NCBI GenBank assembly: GCA_021324035.1
Contig: JAJPJU010000188.1
Span: 1-41,852 of the forward strand
Length of the DNA: 41,852 nucleotides
Direction: 5' to 3'
Source of the DNA: Spartobacteria bacterium
GTDB taxonomy: Bacteria; Verrucomicrobiota; Verrucomicrobiia; Chthoniobacterales; UBA10450
The notes under the pieces are model-generated. The model had not been told where the DNA came from, did not search any database, and saw only the letters and a list, made by a program, of their open reading frames with translations. Made by a program: the position numbers and the translations under genes. This document shows, in pieces, positions 5,238 through 39,325 of the stretch. Numbering within the stretch: the stretch's first letter is position 1; each line of letters opens with the position of its first letter.

Positions 5238-5340
5238 TAGGACATATGGCCAACGGACTTTGCTTATAAATCCGTAAACCGCAAATAAAGTTCACGAACC
5301 CGGCGCTCCCAGTCGCGAGTTAATTGTTAGCCGTCAGCCG

Positions 5341-9164: not shown

Positions 9165-9188
9165 GACAATGGCCCCACCTGGCGGAAC

Positions 9189-10118: not shown

Positions 10119-10254
10119 TTTGATTCCTTTCCTCGTGACCAGCGTTGACTCAACAAATCTAGATCGCGGCGTCGTCCTTGGATACGAGAAACCCGTCTCC
10201 CTGGCGCAGCCGAATCGTATTGACGCCTAGCCGTATTTCTGCCGGAATTCCTCG

Positions 10255-10722
10255 ATGATAAAAACTCGAATTACAGCAGTAACTCTTGCCCTCTCGATGA
10301 TGGGCGCGGTCAGTTGTTTTGCGGCTAACGCGCACATTGGGACTTGGAAAACCAATGAGGCGAAATCGAAGCAAGCGCCGGGCATGGGCAAGACGAACAC
10401 CGTCACCTATGCCGAGAAGAAAGATCAGTTGCAAGTGACGGTGGACGGCGCGGATAAGGACGGCAAACCGACTCACGGAGTTTGGATGGGTACGACCGAC
10501 GGCAAAGCCTATAAAGTAAAGGGCAACCTTTCCTGGGACGCGATGGCCTACAAAATGGTGGACGACCACACCTATGACATTACTGCGATGAAGAATGGAA
10601 AAGTGGCTTGGACCGGCCGAACCACCGTCTCGAAGGATGGCAAAACACGCACGCTCAATATGAGCGGTACTGGCGCGGACGGAAAGAAATTCAAAGCCAA
10701 GAACGTTTACGACAGAGCGTAG
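10255..10722 (+). CDS. small secreted beta-rich protein, possibly lipocalin-like
   Basis: Signal peptide MIKTRITAVTLALSMMGAVSCFA. A GTWKTNEAKSK start and alternating K/T/G-rich strands resemble lipocalin-like domain proteins, but that assignment is tentative. It is the only plus-strand gene inside the array region. Confidence 0.55.
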   Translation: MIKTRITAVTLALSMMGAVSCFAANAHIGTWKTNEAKSKQAPGMGKTNTVTYAEKKDQLQVTVDGADKDGKPTHGVWMGTTDGKAYKVKGNLSWDAMAYKMVDDHTYDITAMKNGKVAWTGRTTVSKDGKTRTLNMSGTGADGKKFKAKNVYDRA

Positions 10723-10756
10723 AATAGAACTCGGCCGTTAAATAGTGCCGATCAAT

Positions 10757-10793
10757 GTAAAGATCGACAATCCAAGCGATTGTCGATCTTTAC
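10757..10793. terminator. bidirectional stem-loop between convergent genes
   Basis: The sequence gtaaagatcgacaatc-caagc-gattgtcgatctttac forms a perfect 16-bp stem with a 5-nt loop, followed by tattttc on the plus strand. The right arm overlaps the TAG of G5 (10793-10795). Confidence 0.6.
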
Positions 10794-12439: not shown

Positions 12440-12448
12440 TGAATTCGG

Positions 12449-13021
12449 TTAGGAGCTGAGCGTGTAGAAGACAAAAAACCAAAGGTTCTGAACAAACATA
12501 CCGCCGACACCAACCCATTGTAGCCAGCGCGGCCGTCCCCACCCGGCCAGTACCGCAAAAATGGCGAGCGATAATCCCACCAGCTCTGCCCCGACCCAGT
12601 CGTTAGGCTTTTGCCATCCGATGGCGTCGCGATCGGCATAGATTGCAAGGTTTCCCATCACGGAAAGGGCAATAGTGGCGGAGAAAATAATCCGGCGCTG
12701 GCGGTCAAAGAAAGCCGGCATATCGACCAGCCCGCTCTCGCTGATTGGCATGGCGACGAGTGAGCAGCTAAAATAATTGGGAATCACCCAGCCGAGTTGA
12801 AGCAAGACCTCGCCCAGCGTCCAGTGCTTGATGTTCTGGAGTTCCCAAAGACCTAACCAGTTGATAATCACTCCGAGCGCAGCGTTGAGCATCGACACCG
12901 AAAGCAGCCAGGACAAGCGCACGCGATCGCGAGCCAGTAGCAATTGCGACGCGCTCGAGAAGACATGGGTCAGCGCAATGGCGAAAATAAACGAGACCAG
13001 AACGGTTACGTGCTGAAACAT
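12449..13021 (-). CDS. hypothetical multi-pass membrane protein embedded in the array
   Basis: 190-aa ORF with an ATG start and about 5-6 hydrophobic segments (e.g. VTVLVSFIFAIALTHVF, LLSVSMLNAALGVIINWLGLW, LVGLSLAIFAVLAGW). It lies 56 nt after G4 and 9 nt before G5. No family recognised. Confidence 0.65.
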   Translation of the reverse strand: MFQHVTVLVSFIFAIALTHVFSSASQLLLARDRVRLSWLLSVSMLNAALGVIINWLGLWELQNIKHWTLGEVLLQLGWVIPNYFSCSLVAMPISESGLVDMPAFFDRQRRIIFSATIALSVMGNLAIYADRDAIGWQKPNDWVGAELVGLSLAIFAVLAGWGRPRWLQWVGVGGMFVQNLWFFVFYTLSS

Positions 13022-13077
13022 AATTTCCGGTCACCGCCCTGACTCAATTCCCGCTGCCGAAAGGTTGCCGATCTTCA

Positions 13078-14844: not shown

Positions 14845-16607
14845 TATTGTGTTTTCGGCGCAACGATTTTTTGCGCGAGCGCTTCGAACCGCGGATCTCC
14901 GCGGAGATCATCGAGCCGCGGATCGTATTTGATGAGAAAGAGCTCGGAAGCGTGTTGGAAGAAGCCTTCCTCCAAATCGTCCATCGCATGTTTCTTTTCT
15001 CCTAGCCCTAGATGAACGATTGCCACCAAGTAGTCCGAAACATACTGCGAACGCGTTTTCTCGAGGAGACGCGAAAGGATTTGCTGAGCTTCTTCGCGCT
15101 GTCCACCGCGGCCGAGGGCCTGACCCAGTTGCGCGAGGATAGTTAAGTCATCGCCCGACCCAGCAGCTTTACGATATTCGGTGATTGCTTCCGGCAATCG
15201 ACCTTTGAACTCCAAAGCTTCAGCTAAAGAAGCACGAGCGACAGGAAAGCCGGGCTCGATCTCCAGAGTCTTTCGGCTCTGAGCCATCGCCTCATCGAAA
15301 CGGTGGGCATCTAGATAAGTAGACGCAAGGTTGTAATTAATGATCAATGAAAGAGGATCCAGCTCTATGGCCCGTTTTGCCTCGGCAATTGCGCGGTCAA
15401 ACTCGCCGATCATTTGCAAAGGCCTGTTTAGCCACTGGTGCGCGGTTGCGTAATTTGGGTTCAACTGAATTGCCCGCTCCAATTCCGCAACCGATTTGGC
15501 GGCATCGAAATCGTAACTAGCATAGGCCAATCCAAGAGCGGCGTGCGGTTCGGCCAGCGCGTTATCTAAACTCAACGCTTTCGTCGCCGCCGCCTTCACT
15601 TGCGGCACCGAGTTCTCTGGTGAAGATACGCCGTAATCCGCAAAAAGGACATAGGTCTCCGCCAACCCAGCATAGGCCAGAGCGTAGTTTGGATCTTTTG
15701 CGATCGCCTGATTGTAATAATCGGCGGCCTTCAACATGTCAGCCGGGGTCCGCTTGTTCCAAAAGAATCTACCCTTGAGATAAAGCTCGTACGCTTCTGG
15801 ATTCGTGGTCGGTTTTTTCGATATCGCAGTTTTTTCCGAGCCACTCAATTTTGCCTGCAAAGTGTCGGCGATCGTTTTCGCGATGTCGCTCTCGACCGCA
15901 AAAATGTCGGTCAGCTTGCGATCATAAATTTCGGCCCAAAGATGCGAATTCGTCATCGCATTTATCAACTGCACATTGACTCGGACTTGATCATTCGCTT
16001 TTTGGACGCTGCCTTCGAGAATGTTCATCGCACCGAGCTGCTTGGCGATATCGGGTAAATTTTCCGGCGCGCTTTTGAATTTCTGCGTCGAAGTGCGAGC
16101 GATGACTTTTAAGTCAGCAACCTTGGCCAGCCGCGTCAGAATTTCGTCCTGAACTCCTTCGGCGAAGAATGCGTTATCGGGATCGCGACTGAGATTATCG
16201 AACGGCAATACTGCAATTGATTTCGCCGGCAATTCGGTACGAGGCGCACTGGCATTATTCCCGGCCGTGTAACGGCCGAAAAAGAATAAGGCCACCGAGA
16301 TCGCTGCGCCGATGACAGCGACATAGATCCAGGTCTTCCCACGTGAGTGCTCCTGCTTGGCATCGGCAACTTCCGTTCGTTTGATCCCTTCGGGCGTCGC
16401 TTCGAAAGCCCATGCGATCACGAGGGCGATTAGAAATCCAATTGCGATCAATATGATCACCAAGCGCACAACCCAGTTCGGAATTTCCAGGAATGGAAAT
16501 ATTTGTGTCGCGATTTGAGCGATTAACCAGCCGACAACTGCATACGCGACCGCAACTTTGTAGACGTTGCGCCGCTTCAGCTCGGCGAAGAAATTGCGCT
16601 CGCTCAT
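14844..16607 (-). CDS. array member G3, subtype S (587 aa)
   Basis: ATG at 16607 overlaps the G2 stop (ATGA, 16604-16607). Starts MSERNFFAELKRRNVYKVAVAY. Residues 126-259 match G4 at 132 of 134 positions. The TPR half resembles G5. Tail: DPRLDDLRGDPRFEALAQKI. Confidence 0.85.
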   Translation of the reverse strand: MSERNFFAELKRRNVYKVAVAYAVVGWLIAQIATQIFPFLEIPNWVVRLVIILIAIGFLIALVIAWAFEATPEGIKRTEVADAKQEHSRGKTWIYVAVIGAAISVALFFFGRYTAGNNASAPRTELPAKSIAVLPFDNLSRDPDNAFFAEGVQDEILTRLAKVADLKVIARTSTQKFKSAPENLPDIAKQLGAMNILEGSVQKANDQVRVNVQLINAMTNSHLWAEIYDRKLTDIFAVESDIAKTIADTLQAKLSGSEKTAISKKPTTNPEAYELYLKGRFFWNKRTPADMLKAADYYNQAIAKDPNYALAYAGLAETYVLFADYGVSSPENSVPQVKAAATKALSLDNALAEPHAALGLAYASYDFDAAKSVAELERAIQLNPNYATAHQWLNRPLQMIGEFDRAIAEAKRAIELDPLSLIINYNLASTYLDAHRFDEAMAQSRKTLEIEPGFPVARASLAEALEFKGRLPEAITEYRKAAGSGDDLTILAQLGQALGRGGQREEAQQILSRLLEKTRSQYVSDYLVAIVHLGLGEKKHAMDDLEEGFFQHASELFLIKYDPRLDDLRGDPRFEALAQKIVAPKTQ

Positions 16608-18352
16608 TGCGGCGGAAAATTCATTCTTATGATGAACGCTTTGTAGCGGGGATCGTCCCGCAAGTTTTTCAACAACGGATCAACCAGCAGCCCCAGCATT
16701 CCACTGTCGTGATGATCATGTGCGATTTGCAACCACTCGAACGCTTTGTCTTTCTCGCTGCGGACCGCGTAAACTTCGACGATTTGATAGTCCAGTCCGC
16801 GATTGTTGGCGATGAGGTCGGCCAACGCCGCATCTGCCGCCTTTCGAACTCCGCGCGCATAGTGCGCAAGCGCGAGTTCGAAGCGGCGATAGCTCTCGTC
16901 GGGCTCCAACTGCGCCTCGCGCAACGCGGTCTCGCCGTCGCCGCGCTGAACGGCGACAAGGACCTGAAATCGACGACTCGAAGCACCACTCGGTTGCAAC
17001 TCTGCCGCTTTGCGCGCCACCGACTCCGTTTCATCAAGCTTTCCCAGATACAAAAGAACGCGGGCGAGATTGAGCTGTGCGGAAAAGGAAAGGGGATCGA
17101 GATTCACTGCCTGCCGAGCCTGCTTCTCGGCCTCATCGGGTCTGCCAACGTAAACAATGCACCGACCGAGCAGATCGTTCGCGGTCGGATTTGTTGGAGA
17201 CAATTCCTTGGCGCGTTTTAGCTCGGTCAGCCCCTCGGCAAATTTCCATTCCGTAAAAAAACGCGCCCAACCAAGAGCCGCGTGTGCCTCGGCCAGCCCA
17301 GGGGCAATTGCGACCGCTTTCTCCGCATCGCTCTGCGCTTTCGGCCAAGCGCTCTTGCCTTCGCCCGTGAGGTCTCCGATCAGGGTCCACGCTTCGGAAC
17401 GCTCCGCATAAGCAACCGCATAGTCTGGATCAAGACGGACCGCTTCATCGTAGTGGCCAACCGCCGTGCGATAATCTTCGAGATTTCGTCGAAGAAAATG
17501 GTAGTGGCCGAGGAGATAGGCGTCGTGCGCTTCGGTGTTTTTTGTGGCCACGCTCGTAGCTGAGCGTTCATCCGCTCCAAGCAATCTCACTTTTAGCGCC
17601 GACGCGACCGCTGTGGCGATTTCCTGCTGCACGGCGAAGATGTCCTTTAGCTCGCGATCGAATGTCCGGGTCCAAAGCTCGATTCCGTCCGCGGCGTTAA
17701 TCAGCTCCGCGACAATTCGAACCCGGTCGCCCTGTTTGCGCACCGTGCCCTCGAGTAAAGTCGCGACGCCGAGTTTCTCGCCGATCGCCTTGGGCTCCTC
17801 CTTTCTTTCCTTAAAACGAAATGAAGAACTGCGGCCGATGACTTTCAGTTCTCTGATCTGGGCCAGAGCAGCGATCAATTCCTCAGAAAGCCCATCGGAG
17901 AAATATTCGTCCTTGGGATCACCGCTTTCATTCAAGAGCGGCAACACCGCGATAGACTTGTTGCTCGCGCTGGACGTGGCGGTCGATCCTGGCGCGCGAG
18001 AGAATTGGTAGGCGAATAAGGCGGCGGCTGTGATCGCGATACCGATGATGAAGGCGGCGAATTTCTTTCTGCTCCAATATGGCAAGGCGTGGGCTTCGTC
18101 GGCCGAGACGTCCGCCGTTCGTTTCATTCCTTCAGGAGTCATCTCGAATGCCCACGAGATGCACACAGCCAGGACAAATCCGAGGGCCAGCAAGACGACC
18201 AGCGTTTTCATGACCCAGCCCGGCGCATCGAAAGTGGGCAGGAGAATCGAAGCTGCCTGAATCAACAGCCACGACACCACCAGATATGCGACTGCAACCT
18301 TGTAAACGTTGCGCCGTTTCAGTTCGGAAAAGAACGAAGGTTTCTCGCTCAT
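16604..18352 (-). CDS. array member G2, subtype M (582 aa from ATG 18352; the track starts one codon earlier at GTG 18355)
   Basis: Starts MSEKPSFFSELKRRNVYKVAVAY. The ATG overlaps the G1 stop (TGATG, 18350-18354). Contains SIAVLPLLNESGDPKDEYFSDGLSEELIAAL..LKVIGRSSS and the tail DPLLKNLRDDPRYKAF. Very similar to G7. Confidence 0.85.
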   Translation of the reverse strand: MSEKPSFFSELKRRNVYKVAVAYLVVSWLLIQAASILLPTFDAPGWVMKTLVVLLALGFVLAVCISWAFEMTPEGMKRTADVSADEAHALPYWSRKKFAAFIIGIAITAAALFAYQFSRAPGSTATSSASNKSIAVLPLLNESGDPKDEYFSDGLSEELIAALAQIRELKVIGRSSSFRFKERKEEPKAIGEKLGVATLLEGTVRKQGDRVRIVAELINAADGIELWTRTFDRELKDIFAVQQEIATAVASALKVRLLGADERSATSVATKNTEAHDAYLLGHYHFLRRNLEDYRTAVGHYDEAVRLDPDYAVAYAERSEAWTLIGDLTGEGKSAWPKAQSDAEKAVAIAPGLAEAHAALGWARFFTEWKFAEGLTELKRAKELSPTNPTANDLLGRCIVYVGRPDEAEKQARQAVNLDPLSFSAQLNLARVLLYLGKLDETESVARKAAELQPSGASSRRFQVLVAVQRGDGETALREAQLEPDESYRRFELALAHYARGVRKAADAALADLIANNRGLDYQIVEVYAVRSEKDKAFEWLQIAHDHHDSGMLGLLVDPLLKNLRDDPRYKAFIIRMNFPPQ

Positions 18353-20403
18353 CACTTCGCCATACCGTTTTCAGTAATGAGTTTTTGAAAACGCGGGTCT
18401 TTGCGCAGCGGGTCCCAGAGCGGATTGAATTTCAAATCGGCGACAGTCACTCCCGCAGGGACTTCGAGAAGATGGGGCAGGGCAGCAATCGCGGCATCGC
18501 GTTCGCCGAAATGCGCCTGGATCTGAGCGAGCGCGATCTCGGCCTGCGGTTTGGAGACCGCGTCGGTTTCGTACGCTTTGACGGTACTCTGCGCCTGTTG
18601 CAGCGCCTTCTCCTTTTCGCCTAGTCCGGCATAGGCAAACGCCAGAGTAGCAGCCGTGCCATTCGCATCGAGGACCACAGTCGATTGCGGCGTTGGCAAG
18701 ATTTCGTGGATCGCCCGCTCAAAAGTACGGCGCGCCTCATCCTTTTGGCCTGACCACTCCTGAAATTGCCCGAGCTCAACCAGAAACGATTTCTGGAACG
18801 AATCGAGCGCTTGACCGGGAGGAATCGAGCTGAGTTTTCGTTGGGCGACTTTGATTCCTTCATCAAAGTTACGTTCATAAGTTGCCTGAACCAGGCGCGC
18901 GCCGATGATCCAGTCATCAGTCAGGTCGGGCGGAACGTGCGCCAACTCATGATTGGCTTCCTCGAGGCGTCCCGCAGCCTGCAGCAGGCCCGCCTTGCCA
19001 GCATGGCCGACCTCGTCATCGGGCGCAAGTTGCAAAGACCGGTCGATGATGGCGAGAGCCTCGTCGAATCGTCTCAAGTAGGCATAGAACTCGCCCGCCA
19101 TTGAGTTCAGCAATTGAATGTCGCGTGGATCCAGTTCGAGTGCTCTTTTGTAATTTGCTTCCGCTTCGTTCCATTGGCCGAGGCGCCGTTGCACAAACGC
19201 GAGATATTGGTGGACCAATGCGCTGTTCGGCAGCCGTTTTTGCGCTTCCTGATATGCCGCCACTGCACCTTGGAAATCGCGCAATACCCGATAGCGATAA
19301 GACCCCTGCGCGATCCACGATTCGCCCGCTTCGGGTGCGAGGGTCATTGCATGATCGGCCGCTTCCTTCACCGCAGCGGCGCTGTTTGTGGTGAGATCGA
19401 TCGAGTTGAAATAAAGAAAGCTGCGGATGATCGACAAACGCGCCCAGGCCAGCGCGAAATTCGGATCGAGCTGGACCGCGTAGGCGTAAACGCGCTCCGC
19501 CTGACCGTAGGCCTCGTAGTTGTAGCTGTTGTGTTCAATTGCCAGCGCGCGGAGATAGGCATCGTAGGCCGCGGCATTCTGGGTCGGTTTACTGGCCACC
19601 GCTTTTTGTTCGGCGCCGGTAAGCTTGGCGTTGAGTTGATCGGCGATGGAGCTGGCGACTTCGCCTTCGACCCCGAAAACATCATCCAGTTTTCGATTGT
19701 AACTTTCGGCCCAGACATGTTCGTCGGTCGCCGCTTTGATTAGCTGAACGTTAACGTGAACGGCGTTGGCGATTTTTTGCACGCTGCCTTCGAGAACGTG
19801 GGCGACACCAAGTTGCTTACCGATATCGCGCAAATTGTCCGGCGCGCTTTTGTACTTCTGGGTCGAGGTCCGCGAAATGACCTTGAGCGCGGCGATCTTT
19901 GACAGGCGGGTCAGGATCTCGTCCTGGATGCCTTCAGCGAAATACGCATTCGATTTATCGTCACTCAGATTATCAAAAGGAAGAACAGCAATACTCTTTT
20001 CCGGAATCGGTCCGGAATTTTCGCTGGCGGTGCTTTGCGGTGCGGTCGGAGATCTTTTCGGTCCCAAAAATTGATACGCCAACAGCCCAGCCGAAATCAC
20101 CGCCAGGACGATGGTCAAAGCGATAATTTTTCGTCCGGTGCGGGGGGTAATCGACTTGTCAGACTCGATCTCGGATTCGCGTTTGATTCCTTGCGGAGTG
20201 ATCTCGAACGCCCAGGACAAAACCAGCGCGATCGGAAAACCGATGATCAGAATGACTACGACCAGACGAACCGCCCAGTTTGGAATTTCAAAAAACGGAA
20301 AAACCTGCGTTGCTATTTGAATGAGCAACCATGAAGCGACGGCGTAAGCGACCGCAACTTTGTAGACATTGCGACGCTTCAGTTCGGCAAAAAATCTGCT
20401 CAT
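18352..20403 (-). CDS. array member G1, subtype L (683 aa from ATG 20403)
   Basis: ATG at 20403 gives MSRFFAELKRRNVYKVAVAY, matching the other paralog starts. The track ORF extends to a TTG at 20469. Contains SIAVLPFDNLSDDKSNAYFAEGIQDEILTRLSKIAALKVISRTS, a long TPR region and the tail NPLWDPLRKDPRFQKL. Confidence 0.8.
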   Translation of the reverse strand: MSRFFAELKRRNVYKVAVAYAVASWLLIQIATQVFPFFEIPNWAVRLVVVILIIGFPIALVLSWAFEITPQGIKRESEIESDKSITPRTGRKIIALTIVLAVISAGLLAYQFLGPKRSPTAPQSTASENSGPIPEKSIAVLPFDNLSDDKSNAYFAEGIQDEILTRLSKIAALKVISRTSTQKYKSAPDNLRDIGKQLGVAHVLEGSVQKIANAVHVNVQLIKAATDEHVWAESYNRKLDDVFGVEGEVASSIADQLNAKLTGAEQKAVASKPTQNAAAYDAYLRALAIEHNSYNYEAYGQAERVYAYAVQLDPNFALAWARLSIIRSFLYFNSIDLTTNSAAAVKEAADHAMTLAPEAGESWIAQGSYRYRVLRDFQGAVAAYQEAQKRLPNSALVHQYLAFVQRRLGQWNEAEANYKRALELDPRDIQLLNSMAGEFYAYLRRFDEALAIIDRSLQLAPDDEVGHAGKAGLLQAAGRLEEANHELAHVPPDLTDDWIIGARLVQATYERNFDEGIKVAQRKLSSIPPGQALDSFQKSFLVELGQFQEWSGQKDEARRTFERAIHEILPTPQSTVVLDANGTAATLAFAYAGLGEKEKALQQAQSTVKAYETDAVSKPQAEIALAQIQAHFGERDAAIAALPHLLEVPAGVTVADLKFNPLWDPLRKDPRFQKLITENGMAK

Positions 20404-20514
20404 CTCGACCCTAGGGATTACGACGCCGATTTTCCCATAAACTGGGCAGTTGTCGATCTTTGCGCACAAATCGGTGCAAATCCTGCTGTCAAAACGGCGC
20501 TTCTCCGCATCCAG

Positions 20515-20556
20515 AGGTCAGATATCAAAGGTCAGACGTCAGCAAAGCAAAGACGA
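20515..20556 (+). repeat. tandem heptamer tract upstream of the array
   Basis: Read in 7-nt register: aggtcag atatcaa aggtcag acgtcag caaagca aagacga. It lies in the 370-nt non-coding region upstream of G1. Confidence 0.5.
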
Positions 20557-21991: not shown

Positions 21992-22024
21992 TGTTTGATG
22001 TATGAGGTTTGATGTTTGATGTGA
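21992..22024 (+). repeat. heptamer repeat R1 (tgtttga-type)
   Basis: tgtttga tgtatga ggtttga tgtttga tgtga. It matches R2 at 30 of 33 positions in the same orientation. Confidence 0.9.
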
Positions 22025-22069: not shown

Positions 22070-23647
22070 ATGAGCAAGATCAAGAGTCGCTACGACGTCG
22101 TTATCCTGGGCGCGGGACATAATGCACTGGTGGCGGCTAGTTATCTCGGACGTGCCGGATTGAGCGTGCTTGTGCTCGAGAAAAACGACTACATCGGCGG
22201 CGCGACCACGTCGCAAAAGGTTTTTCCCGATTACGATGCGCGGCTCTCTCGATATGCCTATCTCGTCAGCTTGTTCCCGGAGAAGATCATTCACGACCTT
22301 GGTTTGAGGCTGCGGCTGAAGCAAAGATCCACCGGCTCATTTACCCCTTATATTAAGAGCGGTCGTCAGGGCGGGCTGCTGGTCAGCAATGTCGATGAGG
22401 GTTTAAGCCGGCAATCGTTCGTACATCTGACTGGAACCGAAGCCGAATTCGAGCAGATGAAAGCCTTCTACAACCTTGCCCGCATCTTTGCCGAACAGAC
22501 CTGGGATTCGATGCTCAAACCGCTGTTGTCGAAAAAGGACATGGAACGACGCTTCGATGCTGATGCTACTTCTCGCGAAGCGTGGCGAAGTTTGGCCGAA
22601 GAACCGCTTGGCCGCGCCGTCGAACGTTACCTGCAAAACGATCTCGTCCGTGGCCTCGTGTTCACCGATGCCAAGATTGGCGTGTTCACGAATCCCCATG
22701 ATCCATCGCTGCTTCAAAACCGCTGTTTCCTTTATCACCTGATCGGCAACAAGACCGGAGAATGGAAAGTTCCGGTGGGAGGAATGGGCGCGGTTGCACG
22801 CGAGTTGGAGCAAACCGCGCGAAAATCAGGCGCGGAATTTTTCACGAATGTGAAGCTGACTGGAGTCGATCTTTCAAACCGCACCGTCAAATTTGAAAGC
22901 GATAGGAAACAGCAAACGGTGGATGCAAAATTTTTGCTGGTGAACTTCGGCCGTAACGTCCTGGCGAAATACACCGGCGAAAAATATCAGCCGCAACCGG
23001 TAGACGAGGGGAGCGTTTTCAAAATCAACATGCTGTTGCGCCGGCTACCCAAACTCAGGGCGGCGAAATACAAACCGAAACAGGCTTGGTCGGGAACATT
23101 TCACAGCGATGAAGGCTACGAACAGATGAATGCAAGCTACCAGCAGGCGGCGAAGGGAACGTTGCCCGCCAAAACTCCGTGCGAAGTTTATTGTCATACT
23201 CTCACCGACGACAGCATTCTGTCGCCGGAGCTCCGCTCCAGGGGTTTCCACACCATCACATTGTTCGGCCTCGATGCGCCTTATTCGCTGTTTTCGAAAA
23301 ACAATCAGGCCGCGCGAGAAGCCGCAGAGGAAAAATTTCTCGCCAGCATGAATCAATGGCTGGACGAACCGCTCCGGGATTGTCTGGCGGTGGCTCGGGA
23401 TGGAAGCCTTTGTATCGAAAGCAAAAGCCCGGTCGATATCGAACAGTCGTTAGGCATGTACCACGGTAATATTTTTCAAGATGCGCTGACCTGGCCGTTC
23501 GCGATCAAAAAGGAACAAGTTGGGACCTGGGGAGTCGAGACCGAGTGGGAAAATGTTTACTTCTGCGGATCGAGCGCGCTCCGCGGCGGCGCGGTCAGTG
23601 GAATTCCCGGACACAACGCGGCGCGAGCTGTGCTCGCGCGTGTTTGA
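22070..23647 (+). CDS. phytoene-desaturase-family (CrtI-like) NAD(P)/FAD-dependent oxidoreductase
   Basis: 525 aa. N-terminal dinucleotide-binding motif YDVVILGAGHNALVAASYLGRAGLSVLVLEKNDYIGGA. Length and C-terminal GSSALRGGAVSGIPGHNAA are typical of CrtI-like amine-oxidase-fold enzymes. Confidence 0.8.
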   Translation: MSKIKSRYDVVILGAGHNALVAASYLGRAGLSVLVLEKNDYIGGATTSQKVFPDYDARLSRYAYLVSLFPEKIIHDLGLRLRLKQRSTGSFTPYIKSGRQGGLLVSNVDEGLSRQSFVHLTGTEAEFEQMKAFYNLARIFAEQTWDSMLKPLLSKKDMERRFDADATSREAWRSLAEEPLGRAVERYLQNDLVRGLVFTDAKIGVFTNPHDPSLLQNRCFLYHLIGNKTGEWKVPVGGMGAVARELEQTARKSGAEFFTNVKLTGVDLSNRTVKFESDRKQQTVDAKFLLVNFGRNVLAKYTGEKYQPQPVDEGSVFKINMLLRRLPKLRAAKYKPKQAWSGTFHSDEGYEQMNASYQQAAKGTLPAKTPCEVYCHTLTDDSILSPELRSRGFHTITLFGLDAPYSLFSKNNQAAREAAEEKFLASMNQWLDEPLRDCLAVARDGSLCIESKSPVDIEQSLGMYHGNIFQDALTWPFAIKKEQVGTWGVETEWENVYFCGSSALRGGAVSGIPGHNAARAVLARV

Positions 23648-23673
23648 TGTTTGAGCTTTGATGTTCGATGTGA
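23641..23673 (+). repeat. heptamer repeat R2 (tgtttga-type)
   Basis: tgtttga tgtttga gctttga tgttcga tgtga. It overlaps the TGA stop (23645-23647) of the CrtI-like gene. Confidence 0.9.
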
Positions 23674-29847: not shown

Positions 29848-30300
29848 CTAAAATCGGAAAACGAAAGTTTCCGATCCCCAAACATGTCGCACTTGATGTC
29901 GATTTTGTGAATGGATGATCGCGTCCCGCAATCCAAGCCAGCCTCGCAGTTGTTGGGGCGCGTGGTCGATCGATCCAGACCAGCCCCGGCCGGCGAGGGC
30001 ACCGCGTCCTTCAGCGAACTGCGCGTCTTGTCGGAGGGTTAATAGCGCCACCGGTCCCTTCGAGAACCTCAGTTCGAAATCTCCCGTGTTTGAAAACCGG
30101 ACAAAGGCCTCGCCGATGACTGTTGTTTTCGGGGTGCGATAGAGAAGCTGACCACTGCGCGTCTGCCAAGTTGCTGCCGGTTGGGCGAATTGATGCGTCG
30201 ATACCGTCGCACAGCTGCCTAAAAAAAGCGCAGCCAAGAACAGGTAGCGGCGACTGACCCCAGTCGCCATCGCGATTCGATGAATCGCCGCTATCCTCAT
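29848..30300 (-). CDS. small lipoprotein-like protein of the export module
   Basis: Lipobox-like RRYLFLAALFLGSC. The start ATGA overlaps the stop of the upstream flavoprotein gene (30297-30300). An alternative start is the ATG at 30270. No family recognised with confidence. Confidence 0.6.
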   Translation of the reverse strand: MRIAAIHRIAMATGVSRRYLFLAALFLGSCATVSTHQFAQPAATWQTRSGQLLYRTPKTTVIGEAFVRFSNTGDFELRFSKGPVALLTLRQDAQFAEGRGALAGRGWSGSIDHAPQQLRGWLGLRDAIIHSQNRHQVRHVWGSETFVFRF

Positions 30301-31587
30301 GATGCCATATCGGCTGTTTTAGGGACCAGGCTCAGTCGCGGTGAAAGCGCGACGAATCTTTGGGCGAACACAAAAAAGTAAAACAGCCACATCCGCCATT
30401 TGATCGCGAGACTTCTGCCTTCGTTTCCCGCGAGAACCGCATTCACCGCCGCCGCGATTTGCATCGTTTCCGTGGGATTGAGAAAAACTTCCAGGAATTC
30501 GCGGCTGCGCTCATACCACGCATTCACAAATGTCAGATAGGTATCCATGACCCGGTTCACCGCGCGGGAATATTTGTTGAACAAATGCTGGCGCTTCCGT
30601 TCGTCCTGCAAAACTTCGTTCAAGATATCCGCGGCCCTTTCGGCGGACATGAGCGCCAGAAAAACGCCGCTGCTGAAAACCGGATCGATAAAACCGGCGG
30701 CGTCTCCGACCATCAGCCAGCGGTCTCCGGTGAGTTGCAAATTGCGATAGGAATAATCCGTCGCCGAATAAACCGGCGACACGCGGACGGCGTCTTTCAT
30801 TCTTTCGGCCATCAACGGTTGATCCGCGATAAATTTTTCGAGCGCGACTTCGGGTGAAAGTTTCGCCCCTCGAAACGCTTTCGTATCCATTACCACGCCG
30901 ATGCTGGTTCGCGTTTCGGTCAACGGAATCATCCAGAACCAGCGATCGAGTCCGCGCACCATCCGAATCAAGGTCGCGTCTTTGCCGGGGAGGCGATCGA
31001 TATTCTCGTAATGCGCGAATACCGAAAATTTTTGGAGATGGTCGTAGGTTTTTTTCACCTTCAACCGGCTTCCGAGCAGCGTTTGGCGTCCGCTGCAATC
31101 GAGCAAGTAACGCGCTTCGATCTTGGACTGTTCACTGTTGGCGCATTCAATTTCGATTTTCACCCGGTCGTCGGCGAAATCGATCTTCGTTACTTCCGTT
31201 TCCTCAAACTTCCGCGCCGCTCTCGCGGGAATGATCCAACAGTAACTTATCAAAGTCGGATCGCGTGACTTGATAGGCCTGATCGCGCTGCGAGCGGAAA
31301 CCGTCTTTGAAATAAAACTTTACCCCGCGCGTTCCGCAGGCCGCCATGATTTCGCCCCCGAACTTCGGGAGAAAAGCGCGATCAAGTTTCTCACGTACGC
31401 CGAGGCGATCGAATGTCTTCATGCTGAACGGCAGCAATGATTCGCCAATATGAAAACGGGGAAACTTTTCGCGTTCGAGCACAATCACGCGACGGCCGGC
31501 TTTGGCCAGCAGGGTTGCGGCCGTTCTTCCCGCCGGCCCGCCCCCGACGATGGCGACATCGTAGATCTCTGCCTTATTCACTGTCAC
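30297..31587 (-). pseudogene. FAD-dependent oxidoreductase (geranylgeranyl-reductase / halogenase-like family) interrupted by a 1-nt frameshift at about 31206-31209 (or an assembly error)
   Basis: The N-terminal ORF 31204..31587 (YDVAIVGGGPAGRTAATLLAKAGRRVIVLEREKFPR...LLDHSRESGAEV*) continues in the +1 frame as EETEVTKIDF... in ORF 30297..31253 (LMVGDAAGFIDPVFSSGVFLA). Removing one T from the gttt run restores GAEVEETEV. Confidence 0.7.
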
Positions 31588-31617
31588 ACCTTAGCAAAAT
31601 GTTCGTTTTTTGACAGG

Positions 31618-31662
31618 GGCCGTTGCCTTCAACGGCCCGCGGGCGATTAAGGGCAATCGCCC
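31618..31662. promoter_or_regulatory. twin perfect hairpins in a divergent intergenic region
   Basis: ggccgttg-cctt-caacggcc (31618-31637) and gggcgatt-aagggc-aatcgccc (31641-31662), between the flavoprotein gene (-) and lptF/G (+). Function unknown. Confidence 0.4.
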
Positions 31663-31687
31663 CTACCTGTGCTAACGTTTGCTGCCG

Positions 31688-32794: not shown

Positions 32795-32842
32795 TCGTTT
32801 TGTCATTCCGACCGAAGTGGAGGAATCTCTCGCTCAGGTAGC

Positions 32843-32883
32843 GGCGGCTCACCGAGCCGCCATGGCGATTGAGGTCAATCGCC
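32843..32883. terminator. hairpins between convergent genes
   Basis: ggcggctc-acc-gagccgcc (32843-32861) and ggcgatt-gaggtc-aatcgcc (32864-32883), the latter abutting the TAG of the minus-strand gene (32885-32887). No clear U-tract. Confidence 0.4.
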
Positions 32884-32884
32884 G

Positions 32885-33698: not shown

Positions 33699-33722
33699 TG
33701 TTTGACGCTTGAGGTTTGATGT
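33699..33722 (+). repeat. heptamer repeat R3 (tgtttga-type, diverged)
   Basis: tgtttga cgcttga ggtttga tgt. It matches R1 at 21 of 24 positions. Confidence 0.75.
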
Positions 33723-33744
33723 CAAACGAAGATCGGAAGACTCC

Positions 33745-33867
33745 GAACGCCGAACGCCGAACGTCCAACATCGAATGCTCCAATTCAGAGGCGTATCAAA
33801 TTGATTTCCAACCAGTTACAAGGCATGCCGGTTTGACTTCAATGTTGGACGTTCGGCGTTGGACGTT
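33745..33867. repeat. heptamer-arm inverted repeat (cgaacgc-type) in the rpsN leader
   Basis: Left arm 33745-33775: gaacgccgaacgccgaacgtccaacatcgaa. Right arm 33838-33867: ttcaatgttggacgttcggcgttggacgtt. The arms are complementary at 27 of 30 positions, with a 62-nt spacer. Confidence 0.9.
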
Positions 33868-33934
33868 AGTTGGATGTCCTTCAATTATTCATCGGTTGCA
33901 ATCCGCGCGTTCTTCATTAGATTGCGCGCTTCTT

Positions 33935-34204
33935 ATGGCAAAGATGGCCTGGATTAATCGCAATGAGCGGAAGCGCAATACGGTAAAGAAATATGCCGCG
34001 CTGCGCGCCGAGCTCAAAGCGAAGAAAGATTACGCCGGTTTGGCTCAGCTTCCGCGCGACGCCAGCCCGACACGTGTGGTGAACCGTTGCCTGGTGACGG
34101 GCCGCCGCCGCGCCTTCATTCGGCGATTCAAGATCTCGCGGCTCACCTTTCGCGAGCTCGCGTCCCAGGGTCTGATCCCTGGTGTAACGAAATCCAGCTG
34201 GTAG
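33935..34204 (+). CDS. rpsN: 30S ribosomal protein S14 (long, non-zinc C-minus form, 89 aa)
   Basis: MAKMAWINRNERKRNTVKKYAALRAELKAKKDY...LPRDASPTRVVNRCLVTGRRRAFIRRFKISRLTFRELASQGLIPGVTKSSW. There is a single Cys and no CxxC pairs. The track ORF from 33716 is an artefactual upstream extension through the repeats. Confidence 0.9.
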   Translation: MAKMAWINRNERKRNTVKKYAALRAELKAKKDYAGLAQLPRDASPTRVVNRCLVTGRRRAFIRRFKISRLTFRELASQGLIPGVTKSSW

Positions 34205-34278
34205 AATTGCTGTAGCGGCAGCCGTGTCGGCTGCAATCGTCCGCCAAACCGCGGGCGACACGCCCGCCACTACAGAAA

Positions 34279-35658
34279 ATGATTTTGCAATTCATACTTC
34301 CGCTTGCAGACATAGTGGTCACGCAATGGGACTCACCTGCCGTCATTTTCGGCAAGCTTGCGACGATCGCCGCGCTGGTTGCGCTCAATGGATTCTTCGT
34401 CGCTTGCGAATTTTCGATCATTAAAGTTCGCGCAAGCCAGCTCGACACTTTGGTGGAGGAAGGGGACGTCCGCGCGCGACTTGCGAAACATGTCCGGTCC
34501 CATCTCGACGCTTATCTTTCCGCCACCCAGCTCGGAGTAACCCTGGCGAGCCTGGCGCTCGGCTGGCTCGGCGAGGAATTTCTCGCGCACTTGATTGAAC
34601 CGTTTTTTGCCCTGGCGAATATTCATTCTCACGCGGTGGTCACTTCAGTGTCGGTCACGCTGGCGTTCATTGGAATCACCTTCATGCACATTGTGTTTGG
34701 TGAACTGGCGCCCAAATACACCGCGATCGCCAGCCCGTTGACCGTCTCGCTCCGGCTGGTTCGTCCATTGGGCGTATTTTATTTTTTGTTCAAACCGGCG
34801 ATCTGGATCCTGCAAAAATCGTCGAATTTACTTTTGCGCGGCATGCTTCGAATGAAGCCGGTTGCGGGAACCGAGTTGGCGCACAGCGAAGAAGAATTGC
34901 GGCTGATTCTCGAGCAAAGCGAGAAATCAAAGGAAGTCTCGGCGCTTGGGCGCAAACTGGTTCTGAATGTTCTCGATCTGCGCGAACGCGTGGTGCGCGA
35001 CATCATGACCCCGCGAAACGAAGTCGTTTATCTCGATATCGACGAGGATTTTGAAACGAACGTCCAAAAAGCGATCGCCTCCAAACACACGCGTTTCCCG
35101 CTTTGTCGCGAAAATCTCGATAACACGGTCGGACTGGTCCACATCAAGGAATTCATGCCGATGTTGAGCGACCCGCAGCCGGACTTCATGAAGATCAAAC
35201 GCGAACTCATCCCGATTCCGGAAATGATGCCGCTGGAAAAGTTGCTGAGTCTTTTCCTCAGCAAACACGCTCACGTTGCCATTGTGGTCGACGAATTCGG
35301 TGGAAGCGTCGGCATGGTGACACTCGAAGATGTGCTCGAAGAATTGGTCGGCGATATCCAGGACGAGTTCGATACCGACAAAGCCGAGTTTCAAAAGATC
35401 AATGCCAACGAATTCACGGTGGACGGAACCCTCGGTCTCTACGAACTGAACGATCTCGCGAAATTAGAATTGGAAAGCGCAGACGTCAGCACGATCGGCG
35501 GCTACGTGACGCATTTGCTTGGCCATCTCCCCAAACAAGGCGAGCAGGTGAAGATCGACGGTTATCTCGTAACCGTTTCGCAAACTGACGCCCGACGAGT
35601 GAAGGAATTACATTTCCGGAAAGTCGAAGAGGCGAAAATAGTGACGAGTGACCGGTGA
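34279..35658 (+). CDS. CNNM/CorC/TlyC-family transporter (DUF21 membrane domain + CBS pair + CorC_HlyC domain)
   Basis: 459 aa. N-terminal TM domain ([16 protein letters not shown]), a CBS region ([15 protein letters not shown]...VGLVHIKE), [28 protein letters not shown], and a C-terminal transporter-associated domain ([20 protein letters not shown]). Confidence 0.85.
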
Positions 35659-35722
35659 CGAGTGAAAAATCCTGGCGCGTAAATCTTCGAGCTCTTTGCT
35701 TGTCACTTGTCACTCATCACTG
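35640..35722. repeat. heptamer-arm inverted repeat (agtgacg-type)
   Basis: Left arm: agtgacg agtgacc ggtgacg agtga (35640-35665). It covers the last codons and the TGA of the CNNM gene. Right arm: cttgtca cttgtca ctcatca ctg (35699-35722). The spacer is about 33 nt. About 19 of 23 positions can pair, counting G-U. Confidence 0.85.
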
Positions 35723-35772
35723 TGATATTTGCTTCTGCTTGATCAGGCCCTTAAGAAACGCGGCATTCCAAG

Positions 35773-35958
35773 ATGCAATTCCTTATTGAAGCAAACATCA
35801 CCTGTCCTCATTGCGGTGAAGTTTTCCCGCTCCAGATCGACACCTCGCAGGCCGAACAATCGTTGATCGAGGACTGCACGGTTTGTTGCCGGCCCATTAA
35901 CCTAACGATTCGCTGCGAACCCGGCGAGGTGGTGGATGTTGCTTACGGCGAAGGTTGA
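35773..35958 (+). CDS. CPXCG-motif cysteine-rich small protein (61 aa)
   Basis: ITCPHCGEVFPLQIDTSQ...IEDCTVCCRPI: a CPxCG motif plus a second Cys cluster, typical of this small zinc-ribbon-like family. Confidence 0.75.
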   Translation: MQFLIEANITCPHCGEVFPLQIDTSQAEQSLIEDCTVCCRPINLTIRCEPGEVVDVAYGEG

Positions 35959-35970
35959 CCCCATGACAAA

Positions 35971-35986
35971 ACCGCGTCGACGCGGT
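35971..35986. promoter_or_regulatory. perfect 16-bp palindrome immediately upstream of mntH
   Basis: accgcgtcgacgcggt is its own reverse complement. It lies 13 nt before the mntH ATG (35999) and 13 nt after the CPXCG stop. It could be an operator or a hairpin. Confidence 0.35.
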
Positions 35987-35998
35987 AACTTGGTCTGA

Positions 35999-37357
35999 AT
36001 GCACGAACAGCTTTCGACCGACAACGGATGGCGCGCCGAACGCACGTCGCCCACATTGCCGGAAGCTTATCGCAGTGTGCTGATAAAACCGAACGCCGGT
36101 TTTTGGCGAAAGCTGCTCGCGTTTTCGGGGCCGGGCTATCTGGTGGCGGTCGGTTATATGGATCCGGGCAATTGGGCAACCGATCTGGCCGGCGGCTCGG
36201 CATTCGGTTACACCCTTCTCAGCGTCGTCCTGCTCTCGAGTTTGATGGCCATTTTGCTGCAAGCACTTTGCGCGCGCCTCGGGATCGTCACCGGACGCGA
36301 TCTCGCCCAGGCCTGCCGGGATCATTATTCGCGGCCGGTCTCTTTTACGCTGTGGGTTCTTTGCGAGCTGGCAATCTCCGCCTGCGATTTGGCCGAAGTG
36401 ATCGGTTCGGCAATCGCGCTCAATCTCTTGTTCAAAATCCCCATCGTCGCCGGTGTTTGCATCACGGCATTCGACGTTTTGCTAATTCTTTACATCCAGC
36501 ACAAAGGTTTCCGCTTTCTCGAAGCGCTCGTGATCGTTCTCATCCTCACGATCGGTGGATGCTTTCTGTGCGAGATAATTTTTTCACGGCCTGACATTGC
36601 TGAGGTGACGCGCGGATTTGTTCCCACATCACAAATCGTTCGCGATCCGGCCATGCTCTACATCGCGATCGGCATTCTCGGGGCGACCGTGATGCCGCAT
36701 AATTTGTATCTGCATTCGTCGATCGTCCAGACCCGGAAGTATGAACAAAGCAAGCAAGGCAAAGCCGAGGCAATCAAATTCTCTACGATTGATTCAACCA
36801 TCGCGCTCGGTACCTCGCTCTTCATTAACGCGGCCATCCTGATCGTCGCCGCCGCAACATTTCACACTCGGGGTCATTATGGGGTGGCGGAGATTCAGGA
36901 TGCTTACAAACTGCTTTCGCCAACATTGGGTGTTCCGCTGGCGAGTGGAATCTTTGCCATCGCGCTGCTTTGCTCCGGCCAAAATTCAACCATCACCGGA
37001 ACGATGGCCGGACAAATCGTGATGGAGGGTTTCCTGAACATTCGACTTCGTCCGTGGCTCCGTAGATTAATCACTCGCTGCATCGCAATTGTTCCGGCCG
37101 TGATTGTCGCCGCGCTTTATGGCGCGAGCGGCACGGCGAAGTTACTGTTGCTGAGCCAGGTAATTCTCAGCCTGCAACTTTCGTTCGCAGTTATTCCGCT
37201 GGTTCTGTTTACGAGTGAACGCCGCAAAATGGGCGAGTTCACTTCGCCGATGTGGCTGAAAACCCTGGCCTGGGGGACTGCGGCGTTGATCATTTGTCTC
37301 AACGCCAAGTATCTCTCCGACTGGATCGGCGTCACCGATTGGATCACAGGGAAATGA
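35999..37357 (+). CDS. mntH: Nramp-family divalent metal (Mn2+/Fe2+) transporter
   Basis: Nramp signatures [15 protein letters not shown] and [16 protein letters not shown]; 452 aa with about 11 TM segments. Confidence 0.9.
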
Positions 37358-37494
37358 CGAAATCCGAAATCCGAAACAAATTCGAAATTCGAATCTCAAA
37401 AAACAATGGCTACCTCCGGGTCGTTTCGGATTTTCTTATTCTTGCTGCTTCGGATTTGTTTCGATATTCGAAATTCGAGTTTCGGATTTTTTTC
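37358..37494. repeat. dense cluster of cgaaatc-type heptamers in both orientations
   Basis: Forward: acgaaat ccgaaat ccgaaac aaattcg aaattcg aatctc. Centre: gtcgtttcggatttt. Reverse: ttcggat ttgtttc gatattc gaaattc gagtttc ggattttt. It fills almost the whole mntH-usp spacer. Confidence 0.9.
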
Positions 37495-37509
37495 TGAGTC
37501 ATTTTTGTC

Positions 37510-37935
37510 ATGTATAAAAAGATTCTAGTCGCCCTGGAGAACAGCAACGCAGATCAGACGCTGCTTCCGCACGTCACTGAGCTGGCGAAATTGCATCGCT
37601 CCGATTTGTTGCTGGTTCACGTAGCGGACGGATTCGTCGCCAGAAATTACAATCAACTCAACCTGATCGAGTCCGACGAGATGAAAGAGGACCGTGTTTA
37701 TCTCGAGAACGCGGCCTCGAAATTGCGAAGCGCTGGATTGAGCGTCGACACCTATCTCGCCCTGGGCGATCCGGCGGAAGGAATTTTGAAAGCTGCCGAT
37801 GAACGCCATTGCGATTTGATTGCGATGACAGCGCACGGCCACCGGTTGTTAGGCGATCTGCTCTTCGGCAGCACGATCAACGAAGTCCGGCACAGGGCCC
37901 AAGTGCCGGTCTTGCTCGTGCGGGTGGGGAAATAA
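37510..37935 (+). CDS. universal stress protein (UspA family)
   Basis: 141 aa. MYKKILVALENS...LLLVHV...CDLIAMTAHGHRLLGDLLFGSTINEVRHRAQVPVLLV, a USP ATP-binding-type G-x2-G-x9-G(S/T) region. Confidence 0.85.
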   Translation: MYKKILVALENSNADQTLLPHVTELAKLHRSDLLLVHVADGFVARNYNQLNLIESDEMKEDRVYLENAASKLRSAGLSVDTYLALGDPAEGILKAADERHCDLIAMTAHGHRLLGDLLFGSTINEVRHRAQVPVLLVRVGK

Positions 37936-38053
37936 AATGCGAAATGCTAAACGCGAAATGCGAATTGAAACAAATCCGAAATGATCGAAACCCAATACAC
38001 CTGCCTTGCTTCGCCCTCAACATTTCGCATTTAGCATTTAGCGTTTCGCATTT
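37935..38053. repeat. heptamer-arm inverted repeat (aaatgcg-type)
   Basis: Left arm 37935-37965: aaatgcg aaatgct aaacgcg aaatgcg aat. Right arm 38022-38053: atttcgc atttagc atttagc gtttcgc attt. The arms are complementary at 27 of 30 positions, with a 56-nt spacer. The element starts at the last base of the usp TAA and ends 6 nt before the next ATG. Confidence 0.9.
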
Positions 38054-38059
38054 CCCGGT

Positions 38060-39256: not shown

Positions 39257-39322
39257 TTGTAGCCGGGATCGTCGATCCCGGCATCAAGCCTGAATTCCGG
39301 CACCATCGGTGCCGGCTACAAC
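39256..39322. terminator. nested/alternative hairpins between convergent genes
   Basis: Outer stem gttgtagccgg (39256-39266) pairs with ccggctacaac (39312-39322). Inner hairpins are ccgggatc-gtc-gatcccgg (39263-39281) and ccggcacc-atc-ggtgccgg (39297-39315). The stems share CCGG blocks, so the structures are mutually exclusive alternatives. Confidence 0.5.
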
Positions 39323-39325
39323 TGC

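Follow-up and report, generated by a model that had tools for sequence, protein, structure and literature searches.

Heptad-built inverted repeats at operon junctions of a soil Chthoniobacterales genome, a candidate family of dispersed palindromic DNA elements

We analyzed a 41,852-nt stretch of DNA (contig JAJPJU010000188.1 of GenBank assembly GCA_021324035.1; hereafter the window) from the metagenome-assembled genome (MAG) of a soil Chthoniobacterales bacterium, phylum Verrucomicrobiota. The window carries four hairpins in short intergenic spacers, and each hairpin arm is made of 3-5 tandem 7-nt units (heptads). In our judgement the chances are about even that all four belong to a dispersed and probably mobile family of palindromic DNA repeats with heptad-built arms, comparable to REPINs and MITEs (miniature inverted-repeat transposable elements). 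Across related genomes we observed insertion into very short operon junctions, four to five recurrent subfamilies, chimerism, and switching of subfamily. An earlier reading of the window from its letters alone (the sequence-only reading) had held that only the architecture of these elements is conserved, and that there is no mobile consensus. This view is contradicted by full-length homology between non-orthologous copies, a conserved order of different heptads, empty sites, and a core, CGAR, common to the units.

The hairpins lie in a conserved neighborhood. A gene for a 266-aa protein on the minus strand is followed on the plus strand by rpsN and by genes for a CNNM/CorC protein, a zinc-ribbon (Zn-ribbon) protein, an Nramp transporter, a universal stress protein (USP) and a GT4 glycosyltransferase (GT). 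This order is preserved in every relative fetched. Among species-representative genomes, the best match of the Nramp protein (35999-37357) is in a Verrucomicrobiota MAG (77% identity); identity to proteins named Chthoniobacterales is 84-87%. The elements range from about 85 to 155 bp in size, and the four in the window are as follows.

Element 1, 33742-33874: hairpin of the CCGAACG (= CGAACGC) subfamily; arms 33746-33775 and 33838-33867, 30 nt, 90% complementary, gap 62 nt.
Element 2, 35640-35722: hairpin of the AGTGACG (= CGAGTGA) subfamily; arms 35640-35662 and 35699-35721, 23 nt, 83% complementary, gap 36 nt.
Element 3, 37352-37504: hairpin of the CGAAATC/CGAAACAAAT family with outer termini AAATGAC...GTCATTT; arms 37358-37386 and 37449-37477, 29 nt, 79% complementary, gap 62 nt; outer pair 37352-37377 and 37479-37504.
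Element 4, 37935-38054: hairpin of the AAATGCG (= GCGAAAT) subfamily; arms 37935-37967 and 38021-38053, 33 nt, 88% complementary, gap 53 nt.

The elements fit closely between their flanking genes. The left arm of element 2 contains the end of the CNNM/CorC reading frame, with its stop codon at 35656-35658, whereas the stop codon of the Nramp gene, TGA (37355-37357), is supplied by the first heptad of element 3. The first base of element 4 is the last base of the USP stop, and the element ends 5 nt before the glycosyltransferase start (38060). The elements were earlier said to begin at or near stop codons, but element 1 fills a divergent spacer, between the starts of the 266-aa gene (33685, minus strand) and rpsN (33937, plus strand). 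Likewise, the elements had been placed in four consecutive spacers; all four are real, but they occupy four of six, as the rpsN-to-CNNM (34205-34278) and Zn-ribbon-to-Nramp (35959-35998) spacers have no heptamer element. A seven-T run (37487-37493) lies 3' of the right arm of element 3, and the loop of this element contains a small terminator-like hairpin (37415-37430).

Tandem Repeats Finder (TRF) reported 18 rows for the window, 12 of them with period 7, corresponding to 11 distinct arrays (at 20512, 21991, 23641, 33743, 33844, 35640, 35699, 37358, 37460, 37935, and 38021). Eight of the 11 were paired by a repeat finder as four inverted repeats, with arms of 23-33 nt that are 36-62 nt apart and 79-90% complementary. 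Among periods 4-15, enrichment was found for period 7 only (4 regions versus 0.04 in 50 dinucleotide-preserving shuffles). Using a looser threshold and a gene map, we counted 9 period-7 tracts in the 2,366 nt of intergenic DNA (shuffle mean 0.10, maximum 2, in 100 shuffles) and none in the 39,389 nt of coding DNA; tracts of period 5, 6, or 8-11 were not found in the intergenic DNA. The heptamer periodicity, arm length, and inverted layout first noticed in the sequence are real and strongly non-random, and the intergenic enrichment that had been proposed as a check is borne out within the window. A further tract reported earlier, CAGAGGT/AGGTCAG (20512-20542), was detected, but it is weak and borderline (TRF score 34, 70% matches), and no inverted partner for it is visible in the sequence.

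The same population is represented by a second, independent assembly, GCA_035307685.1. Over 4,495 nt its identity to the window is 99.93%, with zero differences within elements 3 and 4. Hence, these elements are not assembly artefacts. Two contigs of that assembly end and begin within the heptads of element 3 (37358-37376), with a 19-nt overlap.

The four units had been described as different at each locus. When the same arm is read in the same phase, however, the left arms are CGAACGC, CGAGTGA, CGAAATC, and CGAAATG, and all four are phase variants of a general heptad, CGARNNN in the 5' arm and (NNNYTCG)n in the 3' arm. The CGAR/YTCG core is present in 18/28 tract consensus units from the window and its four closest relatives, a count that includes partly orthologous and hence non-independent tracts of the clade. 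For comparison, the core is present in 11/126 tract units from 80 Nramp loci of other taxa, and in 18.5% of random 7-mers from the window.

Comparison with relatives, whose loci carry L numbers here, indicates how the spacers came to be occupied. The Nramp stop is only 2-4 nt from the USP start in L086, L087, and L089 (an empty site), and the USP and GT genes overlap in L089. In the window, L083, L084, and L085, on the other hand, the Nramp-to-USP spacer is 97-152 nt long and consists almost wholly of hairpin. Given that the same genes abut in sister lineages, the hairpins were inserted. The filled clade is placed as derived in the Nramp tree, ((((window, L083), L084), L085), (P0026, L087), L086) plus outgroups. 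At the filled Nramp sites the native C-terminal codons are replaced and the stop is the TGA of the first heptad of the element (..AAATGA); in the window and L084, CGAA.. comes immediately after it. The end of the L086 Nramp gene (about 11340-11368; GTCATTTGTCATTGG / GTCATTTGTCATTGGTAA) resembles a GACGAAT-type right arm, and may be a right-arm remnant that was absorbed into the coding sequence after a deletion. The occupancy of the junctions in the filled clade is as follows.

Upstream of rpsN: element present in the window; absent in L083 and L085; the L084 contig starts within CNNM.
CNNM to Zn-ribbon: AGTGACG in the window, L084, and L085; CGAAATC-type in L083.
Nramp to USP: CGAAATC in the window; GCGAAAC/GCGAAGT in L083; GACGAAT in L084; GCGAAAC in L085.
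USP to GT: GCGAAAT in the window; a chimera in L083; GTAG-type palindromic sequence in L084 (3285-3536), filling the spacer in place of a heptad hairpin; GCGAAGC in L085.

Thus the Nramp-to-USP junction always holds a hairpin, with a different unit, in relatives whose Nramp proteins are 89-93% identical. This is the turnover of heptamer identity with persisting architecture that the sequence-only reading had envisaged. The outgroup L086 has a GACGAAT-type element at its USP-to-GT junction. At this junction the right arm of element 4 is conserved in L083 and L085, and the left arm in L083 has been swapped for one of the CGAAATC type. The L083 element (L083_USP) is a chimera. CGAAATC-type right arms are the partners of its left arm (scores 24-27) and GCGAAAT-type left arms those of its right arm, whereas the two arms of the element itself match each other poorly (score 10). 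The elements fall into four to five compatibility groups when left halves are set against reverse-complemented right halves in a matrix. Units within one array are 76-100% alike, whereas synonymous third positions are only 50-68% identical among these genomes, so the arrays are renewed or constrained and are not relics.

When 14 elements were compared all against all, the top pair was non-orthologous. It comprises the Nramp-to-USP element of L084 and the USP-to-GT element of L086, which align with a score of 96 (shuffled sequences, at most 18) and are 76% identical over 123 columns, interior included. Similarly, element 3 is closer to the CNNM element of L083 than to the orthologous Nramp element of L083 (56 versus 40), and is 80% identical to the former over the loop and right arm. 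Both non-orthologous identities, 76% and 80%, exceed the synonymous-site identity of the genomes.

Element 3 represents a family in which the order of heptads is fixed: AAATN-CGAAATT-CGAATAT-CGAAATC-CGAAACAAAT ... ATTTGTTTCG-GATTTCG-ATATTCG-AATTTCG-GATTT. The conserved heptad arm is AAATCCGAAATTCGAATATCGAAATCCGAAACAAAT. Eight metagenome or relative loci have the ordered left arm (with CGAATAT or CGAAGCA third) and the matching right arm, and interior motifs (e.g., AATGACCAAA) are common to these eight. Element 3 aligns with copies in L083, L111, L149, L170, L180, L188, L191, and L199, as well as in contigs of a viral collection. The L199 copy is 71% identical to it over 141 columns, and L199 is a Planctomycetota (Sedimentisphaerales-like) contig whose ArgH is 84-85% identical to named MAGs. 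Overall, the family occupies at least 13 unrelated gene neighborhoods, one of them in this Planctomycetota contig, and we found no shared neighboring genes among its loci except in one orthologous pair. A scan of the viral collection (IMG/VR) with a 16-base family motif gave 91 matches, a number near a rough chance estimate, and 7 of these are full elements. The full copies are in L216, L235/L280, L243, L257, L272, and L292, contigs classified as viral with 55-60% G+C, which may be phages, prophage flanks, or misclassified host DNA.

Metagenomes were scanned for four phased CGAA cores, which gave at least 120 loci. Among the matches listed, 53/152 CGAA arrays have a partner that is at least 75% complementary within 200 nt, versus only 3 of those arrays in a reverse-not-complement control, and the exact 15-mer CGAAACAAATTCGAA occurs in 6/209 loci. 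Among the metagenome matches listed, 54% of arrays versus 81% of random positions fall inside a stop-to-stop open reading frame (ORF) of 120 aa or more, which suggests intergenic enrichment, six-frame ORFs being a crude proxy. Elements 2 and 4 have unit types that also occur in L077, an Acidobacteriota locus, and L006, a Gemmatimonadales locus, where the arms alone align. Six metagenome contigs (L105, L187, L143, L163, L177, and L184) share the NADH dehydrogenase genes nuoC/nuoD, three of the six also share nuoH, and L105 and L187 have, next to these genes, the same CGAATAG-CGAATGG-CGAATGG array in the same context. The shared sequence context suggests that this nuo-adjacent array is conserved orthologously. 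We also noted inverted tandem pairs of 8-nt units (e.g., GTCGGACN and GAGTCGAG) in Gemmatimonadota and Acidobacteriota loci (L012 12815-12906, L020 11236-11348, and L077 9775-9949); their layout is alike, and is thus not strictly tied to period 7.

These comparisons bear on the possibility that each hairpin formed where it stands, with slippage expanding a local heptamer, palindrome formation or template switching copying the arm, and any likeness between loci due to convergence. We consider such local genesis quite unlikely. It would be in keeping with the general abundance of heptanucleotides, which are the commonest long simple-sequence repeats in many bacteria and for which slippage has been proposed (Mrazek 2007, as cited in PMC4692102 and PMC4679880). 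Homogeneous arrays, such as (CGAAATC)4...(GATTTCG)4 in L099, could be of this kind, as could the inverted arrays of period 7 and 8 that are built from quite other units in loci of Gemmatimonadota, Acidobacteriota, and cyanobacteria, and the greater likeness of units within an array than of neutral sites also agrees with it. However, convergence does not account for non-orthologous copies that are homologous over their full length, non-periodic interior included, for an order of different heptads that is conserved across phyla, or for a CGAR core common to all units in the same arm. The tight empty sites in sister lineages are equally difficult to explain. Slippage combined with palindrome formation was one generator suggested by the sequence-only reading; slippage probably does act on the elements, but in view of the homology and the empty sites it leaves their origin unexplained.

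A second alternative is that the hairpins are selected as cis-acting RNA structures that set the expression of adjacent genes by terminating transcription, blocking exonucleases, presenting a site for RNase III, or occluding a start. Placement makes this attractive: elements include a stop codon or begin 0-17 nt from one, several of them leave 5-25 nt to the next start, and the same junctions are occupied in four species. A T7-T8 run follows the right arms of element 3 and of the L085 Nramp-to-USP element, and the terminator-like hairpin within the element 3 loop could be read in the same way. Predicted folds are also very stable. For every element and either strand the fold energy is -38 to -58 kcal/mol, and elements 1, 2, and 4 have z-scores of about -5 to -6 (element 1, -54.6 kcal/mol on the plus strand and -58.2 on the minus strand, z about -6; element 2, -40.4 kcal/mol, z -6.0; element 4, -37.8 kcal/mol on the plus strand and -48.3 on the minus strand).

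Tests specific to RNA, however, lend little to this alternative, which we regard as unlikely. For 13 elements with a known sense strand we found no strand asymmetry in fold energy or G-U pairs: the summed energy is -550 kcal/mol for sense and -540 for antisense, there are 45 and 37 G-U pairs, respectively, and the better fold is sense in 7/13 elements and antisense in 6/13. In an RNAalifold analysis of nine family members the pairs formed are between invariant CGAA and TTCG cores, compensatory change is seen at only 2/25 consensus pairs, and the covariation term, +0.69, is unfavorable. The conservation of the element 3 family is one of sequence, not of structure. Neither the window nor 10 related loci gave an Rfam match at the gathering score. 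When the region was searched by E-value, the sole match with E<1 was a chance one to a plant miRNA hairpin, at 25.6 bits versus a gathering score of 135. A promoter and terminator consensus scan of the window gave counts equal to those of shuffles, with a terminator-type total of 6 versus 6.5. As to the four hairpins being intrinsic terminators, the scan flags none of them as a whole, their loops are 36-62 nt compared with 3-8 nt in such terminators, and a T7 run follows element 3 only; we rejected this assignment. Moreover, divergent gene starts flank both element 1 and the L191 copy, the arms of L083_USP pair poorly, and sister lineages manage without elements at junctions where the genes are coupled. 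Roles in termination and mRNA stabilization had been suggested earlier; stable folds are predicted, but the asymmetry and covariation tests were negative. Taken together, this speaks against the elements being a conventional structured RNA or dedicated terminators, and is compatible with incidental effects on mRNA.

If sequence and not pairing is conserved, the arrays might instead be read as DNA by a protein, with CGAA at 7-bp spacing serving as non-mobile operator or nucleoid sites and one heptad bound per subunit. The four-base core invariant at a fixed phase beside three variable positions would suit such sites, as would the lack of strand bias. The omega repressor of inc18 plasmids reads direct and inverted arrays of 7-bp heptads. 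Binding of one heptamer each has been proposed for cold-shock proteins (PMC4679880). Within the window a separate motif, TGTTTGA (described below), has three promoter-proximal sites and is conserved upstream of one gene across species. Nevertheless, we found no candidate for such a protein, the genes on either side have unrelated functions, and presence/absence and subfamily swapping at a single junction are hard to reconcile with a fixed regulon. We therefore hold fixed binding arrays to be improbable.

Dispersed palindromic DNA repeats account better for insertion, homology, and turnover, and a plausible sequence of events can be outlined. The iterated CGAA cores would be read by a putative transposase-like or heptad-binding protein, and copies would thereby spread, either by copy-and-paste or by recombination. 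The lack of target duplication would be as in REP/RAYT or IS200/IS605-type single-strand hairpin transposition (REP, repetitive extragenic palindromic; RAYT, REP-associated tyrosine transposase). Replication slippage and templating between arms would then expand and homogenize the heptads, such that each copy comes to have its own dominant unit. In polycistronic mRNA the elements should fold into long stem-loops, with predicted energies of -38 to -55 kcal/mol. Such structures would end the translational coupling that the genes formerly had and could act as 3'-end barriers or partial terminators; such effects would be by-products and not the reason for the existence of the elements.

Several observations weigh against mobile repeats. 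No target-site duplication was found at 15 family copies or at the filled sites. No transposase or RAYT was identified by Pfam among the proteins of the window, and none recurs beside copies: a search for recurrent neighbors (at least 120 metagenome loci and 16 family loci) returned only housekeeping coincidences, namely the nuo operon and NtrC-like regulators, and one orthologous pair. Across about 2.2 Mb of fetched loci, no family ends were found 0.5-5 kb apart around a transposase. The four copies in the window are not near-identical, and there is no sign of recent bursts in the genome, which is viewed here through about 42 kb in which the four copies represent four subfamilies. Some arrays elsewhere, such as (CGAAATC)4 in L099, are pure simple-sequence repeats, explicable by slippage alone. 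Junctions that are occupied across species could also reflect selection for function. A BLAST search of element 3 against 72,556 plasmids gave no match, although the low-complexity filter may hide repeats.

A wider proposition can be made, which we put forward as rather doubtful: that CGAA-heptad hairpins constitute a second REPIN-like superfamily across the Planctomycetes-Verrucomicrobia-Chlamydiae (PVC) superphylum, and perhaps other soil phyla, kept by a dedicated protein that would recognize iterated 7-bp heptads and not a palindrome tagged with GTAG. One subfamily would displace another at operon junctions, and host genes would gain stop codons and mRNA structure from the elements.

Among known systems, REPINs are similar in several respects. 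REP and REPIN elements were reportedly described together with RAYT transposases by Bertels and Rainey in 2011. Like the window elements, REPINs have two inverted arms of about 25-30 nt that lie tens of nucleotides apart and form one long hairpin, are extragenic and dispersed, make no target duplication, occur as several families per genome, and persist for long periods. The arm of a REP is a short palindrome tagged with GTAG/CGTC (PMC3733652), whereas the arms in the window are direct heptad arrays. Single window arms fold at 0 to -4.8 kcal/mol (DNA parameters) and are not self-palindromic. No GTAG/CGTC terminal tag was found at the arm ends, GACG occurring only within every AGTGACG heptad. 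The non-palindromic, tagless arms rule out a classical REP assignment, and no RAYT is known to be associated with heptad hairpins. MITEs are likewise below about 300 bp, non-coding, and multi-copy, with inverted termini (here AAATN-CGAA...TTCG-NATTT) and presence/absence polymorphism. Unlike MITEs, the window elements have no target-site duplication, their terminal repeats are internally periodic, and no autonomous relative was found in the fetched loci. The sequence-only reading would have given way had all copies derived from one known REP or MITE consensus; no described family matches, but several subfamily consensuses share the core.

GTAG-tagged REPs are documented in the PVC superphylum (PMC3733652). 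The window contains REP-type palindromes headed by GTAG/CTAC, e.g., TGTAGCCGG...CCGGCTACA, at 34207-34278, 39257-39325, 31610-31678, and 32830-32884, and the one after rpsN is conserved in L083 and L085. We also considered integron attC sites and set them aside: the core motifs RYYYAAC/GTTRRRY are present in element 1 only, the flanking genes are syntenic core genes, and no integrase was identified by Pfam in the window.

Heptamer arrays have been reported from several other bacteria. Xanthomonas genomes have about 185 GGGAATC arrays each, of which 70-75 convergent pairs are able to form a stem-loop (Rehm et al. 2015, PMC4692102). As in the window, the heptamers are intergenic, and the same genes flank arrays in related species while length and sequence vary (PMC4692102). 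In Xanthomonas, however, each genome has a single G-rich unit, which was investigated for its G-quadruplex formation, whereas the window family comprises CGARNNN subfamilies without G-tracts, and differs further in its conserved non-periodic interior and its insertion into operon junctions. Short tandemly repeated repetitive (STRR) sequences also consist of tandem 7-nt units, are strongly intergenic, and have favored units that differ by lineage, as seen in the Microcoleus locus L029. The STRR units of heterocystous cyanobacteria are CCCCAGT, TTGGTCA, and CAACAGT, as papers citing Mazel 1990 give them, compared with CGARNNN units in a Chthoniobacterales host here. Nostoc has arrays of a GGGGAYT heptamer that are mostly unpaired (PMC4692102), and these arrays are not described as discrete elements with conserved ends and interiors. 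In Geobacter metallireducens there are multicopy sites with 4-5 tandem heptanucleotides (GGACCGG; MTYCTGA), including some pairs that loop back (PMC2700814). Those sites are annotated as putative global regulatory sites, differ in unit and phylum, and come without an analysis of insertion or turnover (PMC2700814). We found no description in the open-access literature of a CGAA-heptad hairpin family, of a fixed heptad order, or of insertion at operon junctions.

That heptanucleotides are in excess in bacterial intergenic DNA has been recognized since 2007; no explanation has won acceptance, and the excess is mostly viewed as a product of slippage. At least one large class behaves otherwise, as discrete elements with conserved ends and interiors, subfamilies, insertion polymorphism, and spread across phyla. 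The question that this makes testable is which protein reads CGAA heptads and moves or maintains the hairpins. On the practical side, the elements break short-read metagenome assemblies, yield spurious ORFs with 7-residue periodicity, displace true stops and starts, and split operon genes that were formerly coupled.

The TGTTTGA tracts fall outside the hairpin family. They had been listed as unpaired heptamer tracts; the tracts are present, but they are three copies of one conserved 24-nt sequence, TGTTTGAYGYWTGAGSTTTGATGT, each with at most 2 mismatches to the consensus. The copies are as follows.

Copy 1, 33699-33722: 14 nt upstream of the 266-aa gene (minus strand).
Copy 2, 21992-22024 (24-nt part, 21992-22015): its end is 2 nt upstream of the GTG (21989) that is the likely start of a FAD_binding_3 gene (minus strand).
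Copy 3, 23641-23673 (24-nt part, 23641-23664): overlaps the stop of an amine-oxidase-like gene (22070-23647); the next start is at 23679.

Copy 1 is conserved at the orthologous site in L083 (5800-5823) and L088 (2-25). The Pfam FAD_binding_3 domain begins at residue 7 counted from the GTG start, so the copy 2 array lies upstream of the gene and is non-coding. The motif TGTTTGAYGYWTGAGSTTTGATGT may be an operator or 5'-untranslated-region motif common to the 266-aa gene, the FAD monooxygenase gene, and the gene at 23679. The TAACTGA direct repeats of Beggiatoaceae, cyanobacteria, and Bacteroidetes end a few nucleotides upstream of starts at many loci (PMC4679880); the TGTTTGA tracts differ in unit, number only three copies, and include one oriented opposite to the downstream gene.

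Other features of the window were noted in passing. A sequence of the form AATGACAAAA...GCGGTAACTTGNTCTGA (35959-35998) abuts the mntH/Nramp start in all relatives (L083, L084, L086, and L089). It may be a manganese-responsive operator or leader; no Rfam riboswitch matches it. A FAD/tryptophan-halogenase-like gene (30297-31587, minus strand) is split into overlapping ORFs of 318 and 127 aa, and is split alike in the other assembly (L082), whereas L083, L086, and L089 have a single halogenase-like gene of 428-445 aa. The split gene is probably a frameshift or pseudogene. The minus strand from 3174 to 20469 carries the genes of eight tetratricopeptide repeat (TPR) proteins, each about 450-700 aa long, and this region is without heptad elements save the weak tract at 20512-20542 beyond its upstream end. 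Four of the TPR genes (13078-20469) abut directly or overlap by 1-4 nt.

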